Of a stretch of 64,000 nt of DNA, positions 53,946-64,000 are shown in pieces. The translations under genes and the position numbers were made by a program. The notes under the pieces were generated by a model, which saw only the letters and a list, made by a program, of their open reading frames with translations, had not been told where the DNA came from and searched no databases. Within the stretch, counting starts at the first letter, position 1, and each line of letters opens with the position of its first letter. Source of the stretch: an uncultured Actinomycetota bacterium (GTDB lineage Bacteria > Actinomycetota > Actinomycetes > Streptosporangiales > Streptosporangiaceae); NCBI GenBank assembly GCA_963711055.1, contig CAVQCR010000013.1, positions 1,248-65,247 on the forward strand, given 5' to 3'.

Positions 53946-55337
53946 TCATCCGGCCGCGCTGATTGCCCGTCCGCCACCGATGAGGTGCGGCGCGGTCGTG
54001 GGCTCGCGCGCAACCGCCGCCCTGCTCACCAGCTCAGGCCCGGTGTCAACGAAGAGCTCCGGCGCCGAGAGCGTGCGCACCGTTTCCTCAACCGGTCTGG
54101 GCGGTTCGAGCTCGCCCTCTACCAGGCCGAGCTCGTTCAGTTTGCGGGCACTCACCAGGACGCGGCTCTCGAGCGAGCCGACCGCCCTGTTATAGCTGGT
54201 CACCGCAGTAGTCAGTGCCTTGCCCAGGCCATCAACGTGCCTGCCAAGTCCGGCGATGCGCTCATAGAGCTCGCGACCAAGATCGAATACCGCGCGCGCG
54301 TTGTCTGAGAGCGCTTCCTGCTGCCATGCGTACTGGGCCGTGCGCAGCATGGTCACCAGTGTCGTCGGCGTCGCGATGTGCACCTTGTGGGTCATCGCGT
54401 ACTCAAGCAGCGCTGAGTCATGCTCAAGTGCTGGCGCCAGGAATGCCTCACCGGGAATGAAGAGGATGACGAACTCCGGAGACGGGCTGAGCGCCGCCCA
54501 GTACGCCTTGGCGGCGAGCCGGTCGACATGCTCCCGCAGATGACGCGCGTGGGCTCCGAGCCGCGCCTCCCGAATGTCCGCTGCGGAGGCCTCGGCAGCC
54601 TCCAGGTACGCGGCCAGCGACACCTTTGAGTCAACGACGATGTTCTTGCCGCCGGCGAGGCGGATAACCATGTCCGGGCGGAGTGCCCCGTCGGATGTCG
54701 TTACTCCTACCTGCTCGTCGAAGTCGCATTTGTTGCTCATGCCGGCCAGCTCAACCACCCGCCGGAGCTGCATCTCTCCCCAGCGGCCGCGTGCCTCGGG
54801 TCGGCGCAGGGCGGTGACCAGGGCCTGCGTCTGCGCGCGCAGCTGATCAGATGACTGGCGCGCGATTGCGACTTGCTCAGATAGCGCTGCATGCGACGAT
54901 CGACGGGCTGCCTCGGCCTCTCTGAGCTGGCTCTCCACCCTGGCCAGGGTGTCGCGCAGCGGCTGGACCAGTTGCTCGACGGCGGCCTTCCGGTTGTCGA
55001 GCTCGCCGGTGGCCTTTGCACCCGCCGCGCCGAGCCTGCCCTCGGCGATTTCGAGGAACGTTCTGGCGCTCTGGTCCAGCGCTTGCGCGGACAATGCCCG
55101 GAATCGATCCGCGAGCTGGCCATCGATCAGCTCGGCCTTCTCTCGCGCAGCGCGTTCCATCAGCGCCGCGCGGTCCTGCGCGGCCCGCGCGCGCTCGTCC
55201 GCGGCGCGAGCCTGACCCGTCAGGTCAGCGGCAACGTTAGCCAGCCGACCGCGGGCCAGCAGGTAGCCGATCGCGCCGCCGAGTGCGGCCCCGAGCGCGA
55301 GCCCTATGAGCAGCGAAGTCGCGTTCATACTCTGCAT
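53946..55337 (-). CDS. rmuC: DNA recombination protein RmuC
   Basis: N-terminal TM, long coiled coil and an RmuC nuclease-like C-terminus (MVIRLAGGKNIVVDSKVSL...FVILFIPGEAF). Confidence 0.9.
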   Translation of the reverse strand: MQSMNATSLLIGLALGAALGGAIGYLLARGRLANVAADLTGQARAADERARAAQDRAALMERAAREKAELIDGQLADRFRALSAQALDQSARTFLEIAEGRLGAAGAKATGELDNRKAAVEQLVQPLRDTLARVESQLREAEAARRSSHAALSEQVAIARQSSDQLRAQTQALVTALRRPEARGRWGEMQLRRVVELAGMSNKCDFDEQVGVTTSDGALRPDMVIRLAGGKNIVVDSKVSLAAYLEAAEASAADIREARLGAHARHLREHVDRLAAKAYWAALSPSPEFVILFIPGEAFLAPALEHDSALLEYAMTHKVHIATPTTLVTMLRTAQYAWQQEALSDNARAVFDLGRELYERIAGLGRHVDGLGKALTTAVTSYNRAVGSLESRVLVSARKLNELGLVEGELEPPRPVEETVRTLSAPELFVDTGPELVSRAAVAREPTTAPHLIGGGRAISAAG

Positions 55338-55392
55338 GCTGGCAGCCGGGGACGACAGTTCTCCGGTCCGACACGCCCACTAGACTTCACCG

Positions 55393-56487
55393 GTGAGCCT
55401 GTCCATCGGGATTGTCGGATTGCCCAACGTCGGCAAATCCACCCTGTTTAACGCGCTGACCCGCGCCAATGCCCTGGCCTCCAACTACCCGTTCGCGACA
55501 ATCGAGCCGAACGTCGGCATTGTCGGTATCCCCGATGCGCGGCTGGACGCGCTCTCCCGGCTGTATGACTCGGCCAGGATCGTGCCCGCAACTGTCCGGT
55601 TCGTCGACATCGCTGGCCTGGTCCGCGGCGCATCGGCCGGACAGGGGCTTGGCAACCAGTTTCTGTCGCATATCCGCGAGACCGACGCGATCTGCCAGGT
55701 CGTGCGAGTCTTTGACGACCCCGACGTCAGCCACGTGGACGGCGACGTCTCACCGGAGCGCGACATCGAGACGATCGCCACCGAGCTCATGCTGGCCGAT
55801 CTCCAGACGCTGGAGAAGGCGGTCCCGCGCCTGGTCAAGGAGGCCAGGTCCGCCAAAGACCCCGAGCGGACCCGGCTGGCCGATGCGGCAGAGCGGGCAC
55901 AGCAGGTGCTTGACGGCGGCACAACCCTTTTCGCCGGGGCGGCGGTCGCCGGGATAGACCTGACCAACCTGCGTGAACTGCAGCTGCTCACGGCCAAGCC
56001 GTTCCTCTATGTATTCAATGAAGACGATTCTGAGTTGCAGGATGAGCAGCTCAGGAAGCGGCTGGCCGCGCTGGTCGCGCCGGCCGAGTCGGTCTTCCTC
56101 GACGCGAAGACCGAGGCCGAACTCGCCGAGCTGTCGCCGGAGGACGCCGCCGAAATGCTGGCCGAGCTGGGCCTGGGGGAGCCGGGCCTGGCGCAGCTGG
56201 CGCGGGCCGGGTTCGCCGCGCTCAAGCTCTCGACGTTCCTGACCGCGGGTCCCAAGGAGGCACGGGCGTGGACGATTCCGGTCGGCGCAACCGCCCCGCA
56301 GGCGGCTGGCGTGATCCATTCCGACTTCCAGCGAAAGTTCATCAAGGCTGAGGTCGTGTCTTTCGACGACCTGATGGCCGCCGGGTCCATTGTCGCGGCG
56401 CGAGCAGCGGGCAAGGCCCGGATCGAAGGCAAGGATTACGTCATGCGCGACGGCGACGTCGTCGAATTCCGTCATGGAAGCGGATGA
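55393..56487 (+). CDS. ychF: Redox-regulated ATPase YchF
   Basis: IGIVGLPNVGKSTLFNALT, DIAGLVRGAS and a C-terminal TGS-like domain (GKDYVMRDGDVVEFR). Confidence 0.95.
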   Translation: MSLSIGIVGLPNVGKSTLFNALTRANALASNYPFATIEPNVGIVGIPDARLDALSRLYDSARIVPATVRFVDIAGLVRGASAGQGLGNQFLSHIRETDAICQVVRVFDDPDVSHVDGDVSPERDIETIATELMLADLQTLEKAVPRLVKEARSAKDPERTRLADAAERAQQVLDGGTTLFAGAAVAGIDLTNLRELQLLTAKPFLYVFNEDDSELQDEQLRKRLAALVAPAESVFLDAKTEAELAELSPEDAAEMLAELGLGEPGLAQLARAGFAALKLSTFLTAGPKEARAWTIPVGATAPQAAGVIHSDFQRKFIKAEVVSFDDLMAAGSIVAARAAGKARIEGKDYVMRDGDVVEFRHGSG

Positions 56488-56893
56488 CGAGCACGGCCGC
56501 CGGGCGGATGCCCTGCGGATGATGTCCTCGATCTCGCTCACGCGAGAGCGCACTTAGCCGCGAACCCGGTTCCGCTCCAGGATGGTCCGCCGCGCGAAGC
56601 ACAGCGGCAAAGCGCGGATCCGGGTCACCAGCACCCGGAAAGCTGCTGGCACGCAACCTGAACCGTGAATGCGCATGATCCGTCGTACCCCTACACCGGC
56701 GTCGTGGACTATCCAGCGCTTCCCGTCCTGGTTACGCGGTCTAGCTTTGCGTCATGGCAGCGCCGGATGACCTTGACAACCGTCTTGACTATTTCGTCAC
56801 GAAGCGTTGACTCTGCCGCGAATCGGACTACGGTCAGAATGCGCTAGGGAGACTTTCGACCAAGTCCGGACAATCAGGCACGGGGAGGCCTCG

Positions 56894-57739
56894 TTGAAAC
56901 CTGCACGCTCTCTTACCGCCCTGTCCGTCCTCGCGATAGCGATGGCGTTCGTTCCGGCGTTAAGTGCGTCGGCCAGTACTGGCAGCGGCCGCAGTCCGTC
57001 CGCCGGCGCGCCGACGCAGTTCGCATCAGCATCGGTGAGCCAGACGGCCCACGCCGTGCCGATCTCCGCTCGGGCCGCGGCGAAAGCCGACTCGGGCAGC
57101 GGCTTCGCCTGCATCATCGACGTCAAGAGAAGGAAAACCGTGCAGGCCTACCAGCCGCTCAACCTCGAACGCAGTGGCAACTCCTATGAGTACCACTGGC
57201 TCCTGTCGCCGTACTCGGTGCGCCACGCCCGCAGACTGAACGGCCGTCAGTGGACCTTCCAGGTCGAGACGTGCGGGACCGGCGGCGGGCACACCTGGAA
57301 CCACTGGCATCAGTACTTCGACGGGCAGGGGCAGATGCTGGAGTACCGAGCCGATCACATGATCGGCTGGAAGTGGGCCAGCGCGGTCAAGCAGGGCACC
57401 GTCTCGGCGTCGCTGAACTTCCAGGTCAACGTCGGCGTGGTCACCATCGGCGGCAGCACCAACGTGGCGAATTACGGCACTCACTCGGGCACCACCGGCA
57501 AGGACCCGAACGTGAGCTGGCCTAAGCGCTGGCGCAAGTACAATGCAAATCGGATCAACGAGTTCTACATGTCGCCGCACACCTTCAAGTTCAACGGCAC
57601 CGGCTCGGAGGAAGGCAACGTGGGCCACTCGCTGTATGAATTCAACACCGCCGGCACGGTGAACTTCACCTACGGAGCGTCACCGACGATCCTGGCGCTC
57701 TGCGCCGCTCTACTGGACAATTGCCCGAAATTCAATTGA
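56894..57739 (+). CDS. Secreted protein of unknown function, Trp/Asn/Tyr/His-rich
   Basis: TTG start after GGGGAGG. Signal peptide LTALSVLAIAMAFVPALSASA. No motif recognised. Visibly lower GC than its neighbours. Confidence 0.65.
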   Translation: MKPARSLTALSVLAIAMAFVPALSASASTGSGRSPSAGAPTQFASASVSQTAHAVPISARAAAKADSGSGFACIIDVKRRKTVQAYQPLNLERSGNSYEYHWLLSPYSVRHARRLNGRQWTFQVETCGTGGGHTWNHWHQYFDGQGQMLEYRADHMIGWKWASAVKQGTVSASLNFQVNVGVVTIGGSTNVANYGTHSGTTGKDPNVSWPKRWRKYNANRINEFYMSPHTFKFNGTGSEEGNVGHSLYEFNTAGTVNFTYGASPTILALCAALLDNCPKFN

Positions 57740-57752
57740 GGGCGGACCGCCG

Positions 57753-58701
57753 GTGACCCGCCGGGCTGCCCGCGTCCTGGCCGCGTGCGCCCTGGCCTCC
57801 GTCCTGGCGTCGTGCACCGGGGCCGGCGGCCATGCCGCCGGCCCTCGTGGCCGGTCGCTGCCGCCGGGGGCGGCACGGCTGCTGGGACAGGGGTCGCTGT
57901 ACCTGCTGGCGGGGCCCAGTCCGTATTCGGCGAACCTGTGGCGGGTCGACCTGCCGTCCGGCCGGAGCAGCCAGCTGACGCACAACCCGCCGCAGGACGG
58001 GGTGTCAAACTTCGACGCCTCCCCGGCCGGGCTGGTGATGGGCGACGCGCGCAGCAGCGTGGACGTGCTGGACGCCCTGGAGCACCGGAAGGTGGTGCAG
58101 ATCGGCGACGGCGTCGGCGACGGGCCGGTGATCAGCGCGTCCGGGCAGATCGCGTACGAGATTGATGCCGCGCCGCCGTACAAGGGGCCGTGGACGTACT
58201 ACCGGATCGTGCTGCGCGACGGCATCACCGGGCCGCCGCGCACGATCTACGCCGGAACGCCGCTACGGCAACCTCGGGCTCGTGAACTGGTCTCCCGACG
58301 GCGCCGACATCATGATCAGCCAGGGACCGGACAGCGGGCGGTACGATGCGCTGCTGATCATCAACCCGGCCGGCCGGGTCGTCCGCCAGCTGCCCGAGGT
58401 GCGACCAAATCCCGACAACCTGGTGTGGGGCCCGGACGGCCTGGCGGTCGGCAACGGACTCTTCCACTCCGGGCCGAACGAGGTGCTGAGCCTGTCCGGC
58501 CGGGTGAGGTACACGGTGCCAGGCGGCTGGGTGCCGATGTGCTGGAACCCGGCCGGCAACGCGATGATCGCTTTCCGCGCCCCGCATGAGATCGGGCTGT
58601 GGCGGCTGGCCAGGCCCGGGACGGTGCGGGCCCTTGGCCCGCTGCCAATCGGCGGCCTGCTGGAATGCCGCTGGTTGTCCCGACCCGCGGCCGGAACCTG
58701 A
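57753..58701 (+). pseudogene. Lipoprotein with TolB-like beta-propeller repeats, frameshift near 58245-58265
   Basis: Lipobox LASC. First frame reads ...PRTIYAGTPL. Second frame reads RYGNLGLVNWSPDGADIMISQGPDSG...LVWGPDGLAV. Confidence 0.65.
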
Positions 58702-58875
58702 TCAAGAGCAACCCGTGGAATTCCCTGACGGGGTATCCCTGGGCACCCCCTCAGCCTCCCGGTCGTCCCGTGATTTCTTCCCCCCTCGGCGTGCTGTGGC
58801 ATGCGCTGGTGTTCAGCCCGAGCCTTCTCACAAACCAAGCGCATCCCATATGTGTCGTCTTGGTTAGGATCGCGA

Positions 58876-59043
58876 GATGCGGATCTTCCTGCAGACGGAT
58901 CGACTGACTCTGCGCCGTTTCATCGAGGCAGACGAGGACAACTGTTCGAGCTGAACAGTGACCCGGAGGTCATGCGGTTCCTCACGCTCGGGAGTCGAGC
59001 AGGAACGGGCCAGGAACTGCAGTTTAGGTGTCACATGAGTTGA
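58876..59043 (+). pseudogene. GNAT (RimJ/RimL-like) N-terminal remnant, frameshifted and truncated
   Basis: MRIFLQTDRLTLRRFIEADEDN then, after a 1-nt slip, FELNSDPEVMRFLT. Ends after about 55 codons. Confidence 0.5.
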
Positions 59044-59180
59044 CACATGTGGTCAGCGTCGTTGCAGAGCGTCCGCACGCCTGTGTGCGCTGGCCATCTA
59101 TGTGCGGTGGCGGGGATATCACATTCGCGGTCCGGGCGGTGTCTTCATGTCAAACAGGCAATCGTCTAAGGAGGCCTCCC

Positions 59181-59759
59181 GTGGCGCTACGCGTTCCGAA
59201 GGCAGAGCTGCCCGCCGATATAAGCGAAAACATGATCAAGCAGTTCGGTGCCGTGCCTGAGCCCGTCGAGGTGGTATGGCACTGCCCCCAGGTCGCTTTG
59301 GCCAGCTTGGAGTTCAGCGGCAAGGTGGGCGCGTGGCATGCGGCCGACGAGAGCCTCAAGTCGTTCGCGCACATGGCCGTCGCGTCACAGGTCGGCTGCA
59401 GCTGGTGCCTCGACATCGGCTATTTCCAGGCGCAGAACCAGAACCTGGACCTGGCCAAGGCGAGCCAGGTGCCACGCTGGCGGGAGTCGGAGGTGTTCAC
59501 GCCGCTGGAACGGGACGTGCTGGAGTACGCCGAGGCCATGACGAACACGCCGCCGACCGTCACCGACGAGCTGTCGGCGAGCCTGCTGGAGCGGCTCGGC
59601 CCGGCGGCGCTGGTCGAGCTCACCGTGTTCATCGCCGCTGCCAACATGGCGACCCGGGCCAACACCGCGCACGGGATCGCGTCGCAAGGCTTCTCCGCCG
59701 CGTGCGAGATTCCGCTGGCGGCCCGGCCTGAGAATTCCGACGTAGCGTCGGCGGCATGA
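59181..59759 (+). CDS. Carboxymuconolactone decarboxylase (AhpD-like) family protein
   Basis: GTG after AGGAGG. CxxC-like motif GCSWCLDIGYF and LERDVLEYAEAMT. The stop overlaps the sigma-factor start. Confidence 0.8.
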   Translation: MALRVPKAELPADISENMIKQFGAVPEPVEVVWHCPQVALASLEFSGKVGAWHAADESLKSFAHMAVASQVGCSWCLDIGYFQAQNQNLDLAKASQVPRWRESEVFTPLERDVLEYAEAMTNTPPTVTDELSASLLERLGPAALVELTVFIAAANMATRANTAHGIASQGFSAACEIPLAARPENSDVASAA

Positions 59760-60622
59760 CCGAGGACCCGTTCGTCGCCCATCGCACCCTGCTGTTCACG
59801 GTCGCCTACGAGATGCTCGGGTCGGCGGCCGACGCCGAGGACGTGGTGCAGGAGGCCTGGCTGCGGTGGGCCGACGTCGACCAATCGCAGGTACATGACC
59901 CACGGGCGTACCTCATCCGGGTCGTCACCCGGCAAGCGCTCAACCGCCTGCGGACGTTGTCCCGCCGCCGCGAGGAATACGTTGGCGAGTGGCTGCCGGA
60001 ACCACTGCTGACCAGCCCTGATGTCGCCGAGGACGTCGAACTCGCGGAGAGCGTCTCGATTGCGATGCTGACCGTGCTGGAGACGCTCGGGCCGGCAGAG
60101 CGGGCGGTGTTCGTGCTCCGCGAGGTCTTCGAGATGCCGTACGGCGAGATCGCCGAGGCCATCGGGAAGTCAGCGGCCGCGGTGCGGCAGATCGCGCGGC
60201 GGGCGCGCGAGAATGTGGCGGCTCGGCGGCCGCGGGTGCAGGTGAGCCGGTCGGAGCAGCAGGCGGTGGTGGAGCGGTTCCTGGTCGCGTTGCGAACCGG
60301 ACAGTTGCAGGAGCTGATGGCGGTCATGGCGCCGGACGTGGTCCTGATCGCCGACGGTGGCGGGCATGTGGCTGCCGCTCGGGCTCCGATCCACGGGGCC
60401 GAACTCGTGGCGAAGTTGCTCGCGCGCGCGAACCGTGTGGCGGGCGCGTTCGAGACGACGCCCGTGTGGCTCAACGGCGCGCCTGCGGGCCGGATAGAAA
60501 TCGGCGGCCAGGTGGCCGCGGTGAGCCTCGTGGTGGAAAACGGGCGGGTCACCCGGATCTACGCGATAGCAAACCCGCGGAAGCTGACGCGGCTGGTTGA
60601 ACCAGCCGAACTCACCAGGTAG
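59756..60622 (+). CDS. ECF sigma factor with SnoaL-like C-terminal extension (ECF41/SigJ-like)
   Basis: Region 2 AEDVVQEAWLRW, region 4 MPYGEIAEAIGKSAAAVRQIARRAR, and a C-terminal roughly 100-aa NTF2-like extension. Confidence 0.9.
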   Translation: MTEDPFVAHRTLLFTVAYEMLGSAADAEDVVQEAWLRWADVDQSQVHDPRAYLIRVVTRQALNRLRTLSRRREEYVGEWLPEPLLTSPDVAEDVELAESVSIAMLTVLETLGPAERAVFVLREVFEMPYGEIAEAIGKSAAAVRQIARRARENVAARRPRVQVSRSEQQAVVERFLVALRTGQLQELMAVMAPDVVLIADGGGHVAAARAPIHGAELVAKLLARANRVAGAFETTPVWLNGAPAGRIEIGGQVAAVSLVVENGRVTRIYAIANPRKLTRLVEPAELTR

Positions 60623-60797
60623 GACTGCTGCTCTGGCCTCGTGAGCGCCGGATTCCAGCCGCCAGTCTGCTGGCTGACTTTGGCGGGCGCACGCGTATGG
60701 CCGTTCTGTGCGGCGCGGTCCGCTGCATCGTTTGTGACGGCACTCTGCCATCGCGCGGTCCTTGCGGCATCGGCGGCCGGCGGGCAGGCTGGCTGGG

Positions 60798-61102
60798 ATG
60801 ACGGATATGCCTGTGCTGCTGGACCGGCTGGAGCAGGCGGGTGGCGCGCGGACGTGGTGCCATCGGCGGACGGCTGGGAGCTTGTCCTGGCCGAGAACGT
60901 CGCCTACCTGGTCGATGACCGGCGCCGCTGGCAGGCGCTGGCAGCGCTGCGGAGCGTCGTGGGACTGGACCCTGAACAGATCCTCGCCGCTCACGAGGAT
61001 GTGCTCCGCAGCGTCGTCGCTGGTGCCAGGCCGGCGGAACGGGCCCAGCGCTTGCGCCGGTGCGCTGAGCCCTTCCTGCTTGATCTGTCCCGTCAGGGGT
61101 GA
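60798..61102 (+). pseudogene. Small HhH/endonuclease-III-like fragment, frameshift near 60845
   Basis: MTDMPVLLDRLEQA in one frame. Then DGWELVLAENVAYLVDDRRRWQALAALRSVVGLDPEQIL in another. Assignment is weak. Confidence 0.35.
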
Positions 61103-61257
61103 CTGTCCTAGCGCCGCCACCCGCCGCCCCTGTACTGACCGCCGTGCCGCCCGTCCAGACTGCGAGCGGGCCCCCCGTGCGCGGAGAAGTGCCCGTTCTC
61201 TCGGGGCCGGGTCCCACCTCCGGCTAACCCCCGGGCCTTTTGCGGGCACTATGAGGG

Positions 61258-62373
61258 GTGAGGATGTCCGGTGAGCACAGGTCCGACGCCGACCTCGTGC
61301 GCGAAGCGCTGCGCGGGTCGCGTGAGCCGCTTGCCGAGTTGTTGCGGCGGCACTTTCCCACGGCGGTGTTCGTGGCCACCCGGATGCTGGGTTCGCCGGA
61401 GCTGGCCCGCGATGCAGCTCAAGAGGCCGCGATCGCGGCGATGACCGACCTGGACCGGTTGCGTTGTCCGGACAGATTCGGCGCCTGGTTTTGCGGGATA
61501 GCCCTGAACGTGGCCCGGCGATGGCGCCGTGAGCTCCGCGCCGAACTGCTGGGCCTGCCGACTGATGTCGTTTCGCCCGCTCCGGGTCCGGCTGAGGCCG
61601 CGGAGCTCACCGACATAGCGGCGCGGGTCCGCGGCGCTGTCGCCGCGCTACCTGCCGGCCAGCGCAACGCGGTGATGCTGTTTTACCTGCAGGGCCTGAG
61701 CCACCGCGAAGTGGCGGCCGAGCTCGGCATCTCCGTGGGGGCGGTGAAGGCCCGGCTGCACCAGGCACGGGTCTCCCTGGCCCCCAGGCTCGCATCAGTA
61801 GCCGACTTCCTGGAGGAGACGACCATGACAGCCGAGGGCGCGCAATGGATCGACGTGTCGGTATCGGAGATCCGCCGGTCCCATGGCGACAATGAGGACG
61901 AGTGGCAATTCGTGATGGTACTGGCCGAGCGCGACGGCGCCCGGACACTGCCGATCTGGATCGGACCCGCCGAGGCGATCTGCCTCGCCATGGAGCTGCA
62001 ATCAGCGGAGACGCCCCGCCCGTTCACGTACAAGCTCGCGGCTGGGCTAGTCGGAGCGGCAGGCGCAAAAGTGGCCGAGGTCAGGATCACTCGACTGATT
62101 GAGGAAGTGTTCTACGCGTCAGTGCTCGTCGACGGCCCGGCCGGCCGTCGTGAGGTTGACTCCCGCCCGAGCGACGCAGTGAACCTGGCCCTGGCTGCGG
62201 GCGCGCCAGTCAAGGTCGAAGCGGGGCTGCTGCGCGCCGAGCAGGCCCTGGCGCAGGCGGGGGGGCTTGCGTCCCTCTCCGTGGCGACTGCCGAGATAGC
62301 CGCCGAAGCCCAGCAACGGATCCGCGAACGGCGCTGGCACGTCTGCGCACCGGGAGCGGACCCCGCCCTTTAA
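61258..62373 (+). CDS. ECF sigma factor fused to a C-terminal DUF151/bifunctional-nuclease (BFN) domain
   Basis: Region 2 DAAQEAAIAAMTDLDRL..FGAWFCGIALNVARRW. Region 4 LPAGQRNAVMLFYLQGLSHREVAAELGISVGAVKARLHQAR. Then VMVLAERDGARTLPIWIGPAEAICLAMEL..PRPFTYKL...VFYASVLV...SRPSDAVNLALAAGAPVKV. Confidence 0.85.
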   Translation: MRMSGEHRSDADLVREALRGSREPLAELLRRHFPTAVFVATRMLGSPELARDAAQEAAIAAMTDLDRLRCPDRFGAWFCGIALNVARRWRRELRAELLGLPTDVVSPAPGPAEAAELTDIAARVRGAVAALPAGQRNAVMLFYLQGLSHREVAAELGISVGAVKARLHQARVSLAPRLASVADFLEETTMTAEGAQWIDVSVSEIRRSHGDNEDEWQFVMVLAERDGARTLPIWIGPAEAICLAMELQSAETPRPFTYKLAAGLVGAAGAKVAEVRITRLIEEVFYASVLVDGPAGRREVDSRPSDAVNLALAAGAPVKVEAGLLRAEQALAQAGGLASLSVATAEIAAEAQQRIRERRWHVCAPGADPAL

Positions 62374-62491
62374 GTGGCGAACGCCGCCACGGCCGGAAGC
62401 GCCTATCTGCGCAGCAAATGGACGAGCCGACAGGGAGGAACGACCGTACGGAACCGTACACTTCCGTGCGGTCCTGTGCTACCATGGACTC

Positions 62492-62779
62492 ATGACCACG
62501 ATCAGGGCCGAGGAGGTACGGATTCCCCGGCATGCACGCGAGGCGGTCGCCCGGCACGAGCGGGTGGTCGTCGTGAATCACGAACGGCCGACCTTTGTCA
62601 TCATGCATCCAGATGACACCGCGGCGCGTTCGACGGCGGTGCGGCCAGGACGGCCGCTGCGCGAGGCGCTCGGGCTGCTCGCTGGCGCGGCCCTGCCGGA
62701 TACCGGTTTCGCCGACGACATGGAGGCCGTGCTCGCCGACGTCGGGCCGGCTCCGGATGACCCGTGGGCACGCTCCTAG
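62492..62779 (+). CDS. Type II antitoxin (Phd/YefM-like) paired with the PIN toxin
   Basis: 95 aa. N-terminal VVVNHERPTFVIMHPDD. 16-nt overlap with the toxin gene. Confidence 0.75.
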   Translation: MTTIRAEEVRIPRHAREAVARHERVVVVNHERPTFVIMHPDDTAARSTAVRPGRPLREALGLLAGAALPDTGFADDMEAVLADVGPAPDDPWARS

Positions 62780-63207
62780 ACACCACGGTCTTCATCGACC
62801 TTGAACGCGCCGTCCGGCGCCTGCCGCCCGGAGGCGCCATGGCCGAGGTGAGCGGGCGGCTGGAAGAGCAGCTGGGGCCTGATGAGGAGGTCGGGATCGC
62901 CGCCATTACGGCTTCCGAGTTGCTCCATGGCGTGCACCGCGCGACCCCGGAGCACCGGGCTCGCCGTGAGGCCTTCGTCGAGGCGGTCCTGGCCGCGTTT
63001 CCAGCGCTGCCTTTCGGCCTCCTAGTCGCTCGTGCGCACGCCCGCATCTGGGCCGAACTCGCCACTGCGGGCCAGGACGTCGGGGCGCACGACCGGCTCG
63101 TCGCGGCGACCGCCATAACGGCCGGATGGCGCGTCGGAACAGCCAATCTCCGGCACTTTGACCGTATCGCCGGCCTCGACATCCTGAGCATCTCCTTTAC
63201 CGGCTAA
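62764..63207 (+). CDS. vapC: PIN-domain ribonuclease toxin VapC
   Basis: LLDTTVFIDLE (first acidic residue), ITASELLHG and DRLVAATAITAGWRVGTANLRHF. Confidence 0.85.
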   Translation: MGTLLDTTVFIDLERAVRRLPPGGAMAEVSGRLEEQLGPDEEVGIAAITASELLHGVHRATPEHRARREAFVEAVLAAFPALPFGLLVARAHARIWAELATAGQDVGAHDRLVAATAITAGWRVGTANLRHFDRIAGLDILSISFTG

Positions 63208-63249
63208 CAAAATTGCGCTGACTCGGTTTGCCGATCTTTCATAATGCGG

Positions 63250-63333
63250 ACGACGATGCGACCGTTGACCGTTGATGGTCGACGATTGACGATTGACGAT
63301 TGACGCTTGACCGCTGGCCGCTGACGACGACAA
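63250..63333. repeat. Heptanucleotide tandem array, about 10-12 units, consensus (A/G)TTGAC(G/C)
   Basis: TTGA/TCGA/CTGA recur with an exact 7-nt period from 63265 to 63321, and ATTGACG occurs x3 perfectly. A period of 7 is not a multiple of 3, so the array is noncoding. Confidence 0.8.
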
Positions 63334-63612
63334 TTGGCGGCAGTGACGGGGCGGAGGATGGGGGCCTTGGAGGTCAAGCGGGGGTGTTACTCGACAGACA
63401 TAGACGGCGACTTCGTCTTCTTCCTCATCGGCACGCGGTTCAATCATCCGCTGAGCATCCGCAAGTGGTGGCCGGTGGCAACAGCCATGCCCAAGATGCT
63501 GAAAGTACTGGGCCAGCAGCCCGAACTGGGCTGCCTCGGATTCGAGCCGCACCCAGTAAGGGCAACACAGCTGCGGCGCGCATCGGGGCGAGCACGACTG
63601 ACGAACCGGTAG
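63334..63612 (+). pseudogene. DUF4188 domain protein, N-terminal half only
   Basis: IDGDFVFFLIGTRFNHPLSIRKWWPVATAMPKMLKVLGQQPELGCLGFE matches the DUF4188 N-terminus, then diverges and stops early. Confidence 0.5.
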
Positions 63613-64000
63613 TCGAACTGTACTGACGCCGCTGCGCGGGTTCAGTCCTCGGCGTCGATGGTCCTAGGGCCGGGCCGGTCGCCGCAGCCGGGATTGCCGA
63701 GCCGCGGGCGGTCGGGTCCCGGATCGGCGGCAGCCGGTATCAATGAAGGCCGCCGCTGGCGCAACGTTGCCGTGTGCCCGCCAGACCAGCGTGCGCGTCG
63801 CCGCCGGCCAGCCGTGTATTGGGACGAACACAACCTCCGGGTGGACCTGGCAGGTCGGGGACTACTGCTGGAATGCGCCGGAATCGGTGCCGGGGTTCTG
63901 CTCGGGCTGCTGGCCGGCGCGGCCATGCGGGTCGAGCGTGGCCCTGGCACCACCATGCTCATGACCGTGGCCGGCCTGCCATATCTGGCGATCTGGGTCG

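Follow-up and report, generated by a model that had tools for sequence, protein, structure and literature searches.

A sigma factor fused to a BFN/DUF151 domain, with a putative self-recognised promoter and a predicted partner protein nested in its reading frame

What controls a sigma factor of the extracytoplasmic function (ECF) type that has no anti-sigma gene beside it but carries a BFN/DUF151 domain in the same open reading frame (ORF)? The question is raised by the ORF at positions 61258-62373 (forward strand) of a 64,000-nucleotide stretch of DNA, called the window throughout, from contig CAVQCR010000013.1 of assembly GCA_963711055.1, an uncultured bacterium of the Streptosporangiaceae. 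Our overall answer, whose chances we regard as evenly balanced, is that this protein, which we call sigma-BFN, represents a large and coherent ECF group with a BFN/DUF151 C-terminal extension that would activate its own gene, would be accompanied by a free BFN protein made from a nested start codon, and would be controlled by BFN dimerisation.

The sigma-BFN protein and its family

The window ORF runs uninterrupted from a GTG codon for 371 residues, and the GC content at its three codon positions follows a coding-like pattern that is equal in both halves of the frame. A Pfam scan of the protein revealed sigma-70 regions 2 and 4, with regions 1.1 and 3 absent, which is the composition of an ECF (group 4) sigma factor, followed by a BFN domain that scored 99.8 bits against a cut-off of 27 (limits and E-values in Table 1). 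The general ECF model TIGR02937 (sigma70-ECF) matched at 79.7 bits with a cut-off of 42.9, and about 190 residues follow region 4, more than the 50 by which a C-terminal extension is recognised. In Foldseek comparisons, the C-terminal part matched TM0160 (1vjl) with a target-normalised template-modelling (TM) score of 0.78 at 33% identity and the N-terminal part matched mostly ECF sigma factors; phmmer aligned the window BFN domain with 1sj5 (E 7.5e-15). The initial annotation, which was made from the sequence alone, had described the ORF as sigma regions 2 and 4 plus a full BFN/DUF151 domain, had quoted the motifs LPIWIG..EA, PRP.T, FYA and RPSD..NLAL, and had asked that the C-terminal half be checked against BFN models. 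Pfam, TIGR02937 and Foldseek agree on this architecture, all of the quoted motifs are present (the last as RPSDA..NLAL), and the match to PF02577 is well above its cut-off. Two separate genes or a frameshift at this site were rejected in view of the continuous ORF, its even composition, and the more than 110 intact proteins among the top homologues.

Judged by extension type and NCBIfam models, the protein fits none of the named ECF groups. The NCBIfam subfamily and equivalog models all scored far under their cut-offs (for example, 109.5 against 208 for NF004113) and the Pfam scan found no SnoaL, TPR or Cys-rich tail, so that both its extension type and its NCBIfam scores place it outside ECF41, ECF42, and ECF56.

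An AlphaFold2 model of the full-length protein, built with 124 homologues, had a mean predicted local distance difference test score (pLDDT) of 85.5 and a predicted TM-score (pTM) of 0.70. Low confidence was limited to the linker between sigma regions 2 and 4 and to a stretch of some 12 residues that joins region 4 to the first strand of BFN, with pLDDT values below 50 at residues 181-189 (369-residue numbering). A linker of roughly 20 residues had been proposed between the sigma and BFN parts; a linker does exist, but its disordered tether is only about 12 residues long.

A word-indexed search returned 1197 relatives of the window protein. Among the best 120 of these, which are 64-92% identical to it, more than 110 combine both sigma regions with BFN in a single chain of 340-400 residues. 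When one genome per species was scanned for conserved peptides, 556 relatives were found, most of them in soil or peat metagenome-assembled genomes (MAGs) labelled Streptosporangiaceae, Trebonia or Actinomycetota, and the others in Acidimicrobiaceae, Thermomicrobiales, Caldilineaceae, Anaerolineales, Rokubacteriota, and one Flammeovirgaceae MAG. Distant members were verified by Pfam as single ORFs with both domains, and the fusion, seen in over 1,000 homologues, is conserved across Actinomycetota, Chloroflexota, Rokubacteriota, and Bacteroidota. Its spread is uneven: in a sample of 200 genomes from the same order, the fusion is found only in the window genome, and the remaining ones have only the canonical stand-alone BFN protein, at about 40% identity.

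The sigma cores were compared in trees of 24 fusion cores, 41 other sigma factors of the window genome (G000), and 17 sigma factors from distant genomes; here and below, L-numbers are loci of relatives and P-numbers are representative proteins. In a quick tree, every fusion was on one side of a branch with a value of 93 in the Shimodaira-Hasegawa-like approximate likelihood ratio test (SH-aLRT). A more careful tree gave a clade with 99/97 support that contained all fusions, the unfused sister P0211, and one long-branch ECF factor joined to the long-branch fusion L117. When L117 was left out, a clade of 23 fusions and one secondarily unfused sister was obtained with 99/96 support and in 100% of the bootstrap trees. 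The additional ECF factor (C5:205094 of G000), a candidate member of the clade, departed once L117 was removed and was rejected as a case of long-branch attraction. The sigma cores that carry BFN form one clade, which is the pattern that PMC7826278 describes for ECF groups with extensions, where the cores cluster by extension and the extension co-evolves with the core.

Candidates for a natural split into a sigma gene and a BFN gene (L165/P0183, L176/P0126, L177/P0144, L028, L029, L033, L034, and L113) were all rejected as frameshifted copies. These occur mostly in long-read or MAG assemblies, and their single-base differences are most likely assembly indels that mimic split gene pairs. Short relatives that resemble stand-alone proteins were rejected as well: at L169, the one 5'-truncated contig whose DNA was examined, the gene caller had chosen an internal start, and this linker Met is also the first residue of many other short representatives. 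P0270/L170 alone has the look of a genuine stand-alone protein, on a contig too short to judge.

The promoter and the nested start codon

Upstream of the family members, (G/A)CTAACC(C/T) and G(G)CACTAT, separated by an invariant spacer, were found in 65 of 65 non-redundant upstream regions. The AAC that is typical of ECF -35 boxes is contained in GCTAACC. In 64 of the 65 members, the start codon (GTG in 61 and ATG in 3) follows CACTAT after exactly 5 nt, and these 5 nt themselves vary, with 31 different pentamers. A fixed distance of 5 nt between the -10 box and the start codon marks an mRNA as leaderless, and from its presence here we infer that the sigma-BFN mRNA of this family has no leader. 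The same distance also favours the GTG at 61258 over the ATG at 61264 that is given as the start in the database.

The core of this promoter, AAC[CT]-N18-ACTA[TG], was found upstream of fusions in Thermomicrobiales, Anaerolineales, Rokubacteriota, another Chloroflexota MAG, a Bacteroidota MAG and Acidimicrobiaceae, and also upstream of P0211, the sister sigma factor that has another tail and no BFN. The motif therefore tracks the sigma core. Within G000, the exact bipartite motif occurs once, at the sigma-BFN gene, where the position-weight-matrix score is 33 bits compared with 18.4 bits at the next best site, and in each of four other genomes it again occurs once, always at the sigma-BFN gene. 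Matches with one mismatch showed no excess over a reversed-pattern control, and the relaxed core was at chance level; taken over the exact, one-mismatch, position-weight-matrix, and relaxed cross-phylum searches of G000 and five other genomes, no regulon was detected above chance. Since the promoter accompanies the sigma clade from phylum to phylum, regardless of host, and is found once in each of the five genomes, at the gene itself, the sigma-BFN gene is probably activated by its own product. An autoregulated ECF gene is characterised by a promoter of its own whose -35 box contains AAC and whose distribution matches the sigma clade, and the sigma-BFN family shows both traits.

The unfused sister P0211 (L166:1136-1960) is the closest unfused sigma factor; its core is 55% identical, it is nested inside the fusion clade, and it has the same, apparently leaderless, promoter. 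Its tail is acidic, helical, and unrelated to BFN. Three genes of about 100 residues each and a radical-SAM gene come after P0211; together they may form a small cluster for peptide modification. At L175:1501-2100 (P0123), a sigma-only allele has kept the family promoter intact, the BFN part is deleted, and a convergent gene follows after 138 nt.

Inside the ORF, the linker codons contain a Shine-Dalgarno (SD)-like sequence ahead of the ATG of Met190, from which a BFN-only isoform is predicted (Table 1). The Met190 column can serve as a start codon in 67 of 69 members (ATG in 47 and GTG in 20). All 20 of the Val codons in this column are GTG, compared with 46.5% of the Val codons across these genes, and by our own arithmetic the chance of this is about 2e-7. 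The GAGG core at -12 to -9 is conserved across the family (frequencies of.66 for G,.87 for A,.81 for G, and.91 for G), and an SD match of at least 5 nt precedes the Met190 column in 49 of 63 members, compared with 0-6 at other conserved Met or Val columns. Because the hexapeptides encoded by the SD region differ (63 of 67) and the SD is built from locally rare codons (GTA, AGG, GGA, AAA), it appears to be kept at the nucleotide level. The SD and internal start are also present in members from Caldilineaceae, Anaerolineales (L112), Rokubacteriota, Thermomicrobiales, and Acidimicrobiaceae, while the Bacteroidota member has an internal ATG behind an A-rich stretch and L117 is without the internal start. 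With a conserved start codon and a ribosome-binding site inside its ORF, as in a nested gene, the sigma-BFN gene probably makes a second, 182-residue protein that consists of BFN only. In one relative (L107:2929-4437), a Pro-rich repeat of about 130 residues (PGDPEPAAPQPGA...) lies in the tether between sigma region 4 and BFN, upstream of the conserved internal start.

The conserved internal start also bears on a rival explanation, in which BFN is purely an in-cis extension, as in ECF41 and ECF42. The fused BFN domain would contact sigma2/sigma4 or RNA polymerase and gate the activity of the protein, and the internal SD and ATG would be a translational pause site or the relic of an ancestral two-gene arrangement. 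The family resembles the extension-bearing ECF groups treated in PMC7826278 both in having no anti-sigma gene and in the clustering of its cores by extension. Moreover, the AlphaFold2 model suggests that the sigma domains are placed against BFN in a compact arrangement: the pTM of 0.70 compares with about 0.46 expected from the largest rigid domain alone (our own estimate from the TM-score formula), and the predicted pose of sigma2/sigma4 is slightly nearer to anti-sigma-bound forms (target-normalised TM of 0.49-0.52) than to holoenzyme forms (0.34-0.40). We take these values as weak hints of docking between sigma and BFN, and the pTM counts for our overall answer as well. The nested BFN-only product modelled on its own reached a pLDDT of 90.8 and a pTM of 0.86, and its C-terminal helix keeps its high confidence when the sigma part is absent, so that the helix packs on BFN and not on sigma. 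If the internal start were a relic, however, 67 of 69 members, from several phyla, would not still have a codon able to start translation, and GTG would not account for all 20 Val codons. For a pause site no start codon is required, and L107 tolerates its long tether insertion. We therefore consider a purely in-cis extension unlikely.

The BFN pocket and control of the sigma factor

According to PMC7249048, the authors of the TM0160 structure suggested that Thr57 and His58 of one subunit make up a pocket together with Asp115 of its partner. In our alignment with TM0160, the window protein has Thr257, Tyr258, and Asp306 at these positions, so the threonine and the aspartate are kept and the putative catalytic Thr-His-Asp pocket is interrupted by tyrosine. 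Among 124 members, the His position is Tyr in 98, His in 20, and Phe in 4; at the next position, where the canonical THDL has Asp, 109 members have Lys and none has Asp. The deep-branching L115 and L117 still have HD. In vitro DNase and RNase activity has been reported for the plant BBD proteins (PMC7249048). Cor (Rv1829), the only stand-alone bacterial member tested, was found to be a dimer that cleaved neither DNA nor RNA, and the same study suspected that the nuclease seen in the plant work had co-purified (PMC3870250). DUF151/BFN is widespread, and a further paper still calls its molecular function unresolved and states that mycobacterial Cor matters for survival in the host (PMC8125079). 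Given the replaced putative catalytic His, the following Asp that is never kept, and the inactivity of Cor, the BFN domain of the window protein is probably not a nuclease.

These residues speak against a tethered enzyme, a reading akin to the tethered nucleic-acid-binding activity of the initial annotation, in which the sigma part would bring a nuclease or nucleic-acid-binding BFN domain to RNA polymerase to act on DNA or RNA at promoters. The Pfam family name, the activity reported for the plant BBD proteins, and the retention of the other conserved motifs, Asp306 among them, are consistent with such a role, but the loss of the putative catalytic His here and in most of the family, together with the inactive recombinant Cor and the doubt cast on the plant activity, makes it highly improbable.

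TM0160 and Cor are both dimeric, and the conserved pocket spans the dimer interface (PMC7249048, PMC3870250); a free BFN protein would therefore be expected to dimerise with the copy fused to the sigma factor. No neighbour gene is conserved across 35 family loci, which leaves no candidate anti-sigma gene, and the commonest neighbour, at 10 of the 35 loci, is a convergent gene that is DUF2087-like by eye. The statement that no anti-sigma gene is adjacent thus holds at the window locus and extends to the family.

We propose the following scheme. Sigma-BFN would recognise its own promoter, giving positive autoregulation from a leaderless mRNA, and this one mRNA would yield both full-length sigma-BFN from the 5' GTG and the free 182-residue BFN protein from the SD-led internal ATG. 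The BFN fold would be a non-catalytic dimerisation and sensing module, and the free BFN would pair with the fused BFN through the dimer interface and so set the activity of the sigma factor. Such a circuit would be the equivalent, inside one ORF, of a co-transcribed sigma/anti-sigma pair. An input signal would act on BFN, as a ligand in the pocket, as a partner, or by Clp-type proteolysis, and would release the control. That one ORF holds a complete sigma/partner circuit, with the free BFN acting as an anti-sigma or co-factor through BFN-BFN dimerisation, is a possibility that we put forward tentatively, as it falls short of an even chance. The regulatory, in-cis or anti-sigma-like role first suggested for the extension fits the lack of a conserved neighbour, the single clade, and the self-recognised-looking promoter; that it acts only in cis is not assured, as the internal start may allow an isoform that acts in trans. 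In Anaerolineales members, and only there, a second, degenerate BFN gene lies 20 nt downstream of the fusion (Pfam 33-35 bits), and this extra gene fits BFN-BFN partnering. The second BFN genes of two Anaerolineales MAGs (L110:4070-4780 and L112:4060-4722) have lost the RPSD motif.

The single promoter per genome can also be read as a one-gene regulon, in which the sigma factor is a self-activating switch for its own gene, the free BFN is a Cor-like stress-protection output, and the fused BFN reports the level or state of BFN back to the sigma factor. In five genomes, the motif has no site other than the one at its own gene and near-matches are no commoner than by chance, and the neighbours are not conserved, so that nothing else is reliably co-expressed. 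The SD-led internal start should also yield more BFN than the leaderless GTG yields full-length protein, and Cor, a stand-alone BFN protein, has a stress phenotype (PMC3870250). On the other hand, the genome already has a separate, canonical stand-alone BFN protein in an FHA-MerR-BFN-MerR cluster, and the sister sigma factor with the same promoter has no BFN. In addition, the targets of an ECF sigma factor may have promoters unlike its autoregulated one, and G000 is 9% incomplete. We regard a one-gene regulon as rather unlikely.

The expectation that stand-alone BFN proteins lie beside MerR regulators was borne out in both places examined, namely the window genome and G008, where the stand-alone BFN is also within an FHA-MerR-BFN cluster. 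A 374-residue open frame of G008, considered as a family candidate, proved to be the ordinary stand-alone BFN of that cluster.

Architectural variants among the relatives hint at proteolysis as a further possible mode of control. A C-terminal Clp_N domain is added, giving sigma2-sigma4-BFN-helix-Clp_N, in 4 of 79 representative sigma-BFN clusters (P0290, P0344, P0374, and P0382). BFN might then recruit Clp-type unfoldases or other proteases by offering them a docking site or a degron, and the abundance of the sigma factor would be set by regulated degradation. In support of this, plastid CLPC1 shows strong trapping of DUF151-UVR proteins (PMC8889267), the BFN protein of mycobacteria figures in a table of the ClpC1 interactome (PMC10433963), and BFN is fused to a CHAT protease in P0350. 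However, the mycobacterial interactome signal is weak, and the window protein has neither a Clp_N nor a UVR domain. Control by proteolysis alone seems to us quite improbable, although it is compatible with the dimer-partner scheme and does not exclude it.

Other variants were also observed. The CHAT protease P0350 has two BFN domains. In a Flammeovirgaceae MAG of the Bacteroidota (L115:2974-5028), sigma-BFN is followed by leucine-rich repeats in a protein of 684 residues that retains the canonical HD. The nearest representatives P0349 and P0244 include BFN with an aminoglycoside-2''-adenylyltransferase-like domain and a 4976-residue protein with 13 BFN-like stretches.

Several results weigh against the dimer-partner scheme and the overall reading of which it is part. 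The sigma core persists without BFN, as seen in L175, which has the sigma factor and promoter and no BFN, and in P0211, which has another tail. No true two-gene split was found among the apparent splits examined. The one indirect test of docking of BFN on sigma, the fold of BFN alone, was negative. A share of the SD signal is due to one fairly common Glu codon. Finally, no second promoter of the type GCTAACC-N17-CACTAT was found in the searches described above, so that a model with a regulator of a regulon is left without its regulon.

The locus, related systems, and significance

The features of the sigma-BFN gene are collected in Table 1.

Table 1. Features of the sigma-BFN gene (window positions) and the evidence for each.
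Feature	Position	Strand	Evidence
-35-like element GCTAACC	61223..61229	+	Invariant spacing in 65/65 upstream regions
-10-like element CACTAT, 17 nt after CTAACC	61247..61252	+	Same 65 upstream regions
Full-length ORF sigma2-sigma4-BFN, 371 residues	61258..62373	+	ORF, Pfam, TIGR02937, homologues, AlphaFold2
GTG start codon and inferred transcription start	61258..61260	+	5 nt past CACTAT in 64/65
Sigma-70 region 2 (Sigma70_r2), residues 28-94	61339..61539	+	PF04542, E 1e-9
Sigma-70 region 4 (Sigma70_r4_2), residues 123-173	61624..61776	+	PF08281, E 3e-16
Shine-Dalgarno-like GGAGGAG within linker codons	61812..61818	+	GAGG core conserved at -12..-9
Nested in-frame ORF from ATG 61825 (Met190), predicted 182-residue BFN-only isoform	61825..62373	+	Start column conserved in 67/69
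BFN/DUF151 domain (BFN_dom), Pfam limits residues 220-329; fold begins near residue 197	61915..62244	+	PF02577, E 1e-28; Foldseek; phmmer
Thr257-Tyr258, equivalent to TM0160 Thr57-His58, putative catalytic His replaced	62026..62031	+	TM0160 alignment
Asp306 of RPSDA, equivalent to TM0160 Asp115, kept	62173..62175	+	Invariant in 124 members
Conserved C-terminal helix (..VATAEIAAEAQQRIRE..)	62287..62343	+	Confident helix in full-length and BFN-only AlphaFold2 models

The initial annotation had named an ECF41-type sigma factor and a VapBC pair as neighbours, in agreement with the Pfam and TIGRFAM matches, in which the antitoxin side is weak. The upstream gene (59756-60622) is a SigJ/ECF41-type sigma factor (339 bits against 323 for TIGR02957) with a weak SnoaL_2 match. 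The CMD-family gene that precedes it and overlaps its start has a weak match, under the cut-off, and the two together (59028-60622) are what we take to be the classic ECF41 gene pair. Downstream, a PIN/VapC protein (62764-63207) lies behind a weak Phd/YefM-like ORF. The 636-nt gap upstream of sigma-BFN contains a 153-codon ORF (60641-61102, forward strand) without a Pfam match; by eye, its C-terminal half is like the N-terminus of endonuclease III/HhH-GPD proteins, and it may be a remnant. Neither a housekeeping promoter nor an intrinsic terminator was predicted at the locus. A genome of the same genus, G141, has no sigma-BFN gene, and its matches to window positions 55000-64000 (ychF, sigJ, and vapBC in the surrounding 9 kb) are scattered over three contigs, which indicates that this stretch of the window is a variable region.

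Among known systems, sigma-BFN is most like the ECF groups ECF41 (SigJ, SnoaL-like), ECF42 (TPR), ECF56 (SigG1), and ECF238/44 (CorE, Cys-rich). In common with these, it has a minimal sigma2-sigma4 core and a C-terminal domain of more than 50 residues, it is without a cognate anti-sigma gene, its cores cluster by extension, and its promoter is probably autoregulated. It differs from them in that the extension is a BFN/DUF151 fold, that a conserved internal start predicts the extension as a free protein, and that no regulon promoter was detected beyond its own gene. A BFN/DUF151 extension is not named in the main text of the ECF classification and review papers searched, and full-text literature searches returned no combination of DUF151/BFN with an ECF sigma factor. 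We could not find the sigma-BFN group described, and it appears to be new, although a numbered ECF group may already contain such proteins.

The extension itself is like TM0160 (PDB 1VJL, 1SJ5) and Cor (Rv1829) in its fold and in the motifs LPIWIG, PRP.T, FYA, and RPSDA, and by analogy it is presumably dimeric, with the pocket across the interface. Unlike these proteins, it is fused behind a sigma factor and has TYKL in place of THDL; in comparison with actinobacterial Cor, it has a distinct C-terminal helix in place of an acidic tail and is found outside the FHA-MerR-BFN-MerR cluster. The plant BBD nucleases (OmBBD and AtBBD1/2, with the order HCR-DUF151-UVR) share the DUF151 domain and its invariant Asp, but they have other partner domains, and a nuclease activity is reported only for them. 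Their UVR domain links them to ClpC1, whereas only a minority of the sigma-BFN relatives carry Clp_N.

For the nested start, the parallels lie outside the sigma factors. In YscQ/SpaO of type III secretion and in CheA-L/CheA-S, an internal in-frame start gives a short isoform that binds the same domain in the full-length protein. There, too, one ORF has two products, and the short one is the C-terminal domain of the long one; in sigma-BFN, the short isoform is a predicted one. We know of no sigma factor with an internal-start isoform of this kind, and a full-text literature search for 'internal translation initiation' with ECF sigma or anti-sigma factors gave no match.

ECF sigma factors are main signalling devices of bacteria, and their modes of control by SnoaL, TPR, and Cys-rich extensions and by phosphorylation have each opened a small field. 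If the proposed scheme is true, sigma-BFN would be the first known case of a sigma factor whose regulator is encoded within the same reading frame, and the DUF151/Cor family would gain a role in the control of transcription, possibly through Clp-type proteolysis, rather than in the cutting of nucleic acids. The fusions of BFN with sigma factors, Clp_N, and CHAT point in the same direction, to protein-protein control of transcription or proteolysis and away from a nuclease. The group is large, with hundreds of members in soil Actinomycetota and others in three further phyla, and its once-per-genome promoter and predicted nested protein make it directly testable. The compact pair of promoter and sigma factor could also serve as an orthogonal expression switch.

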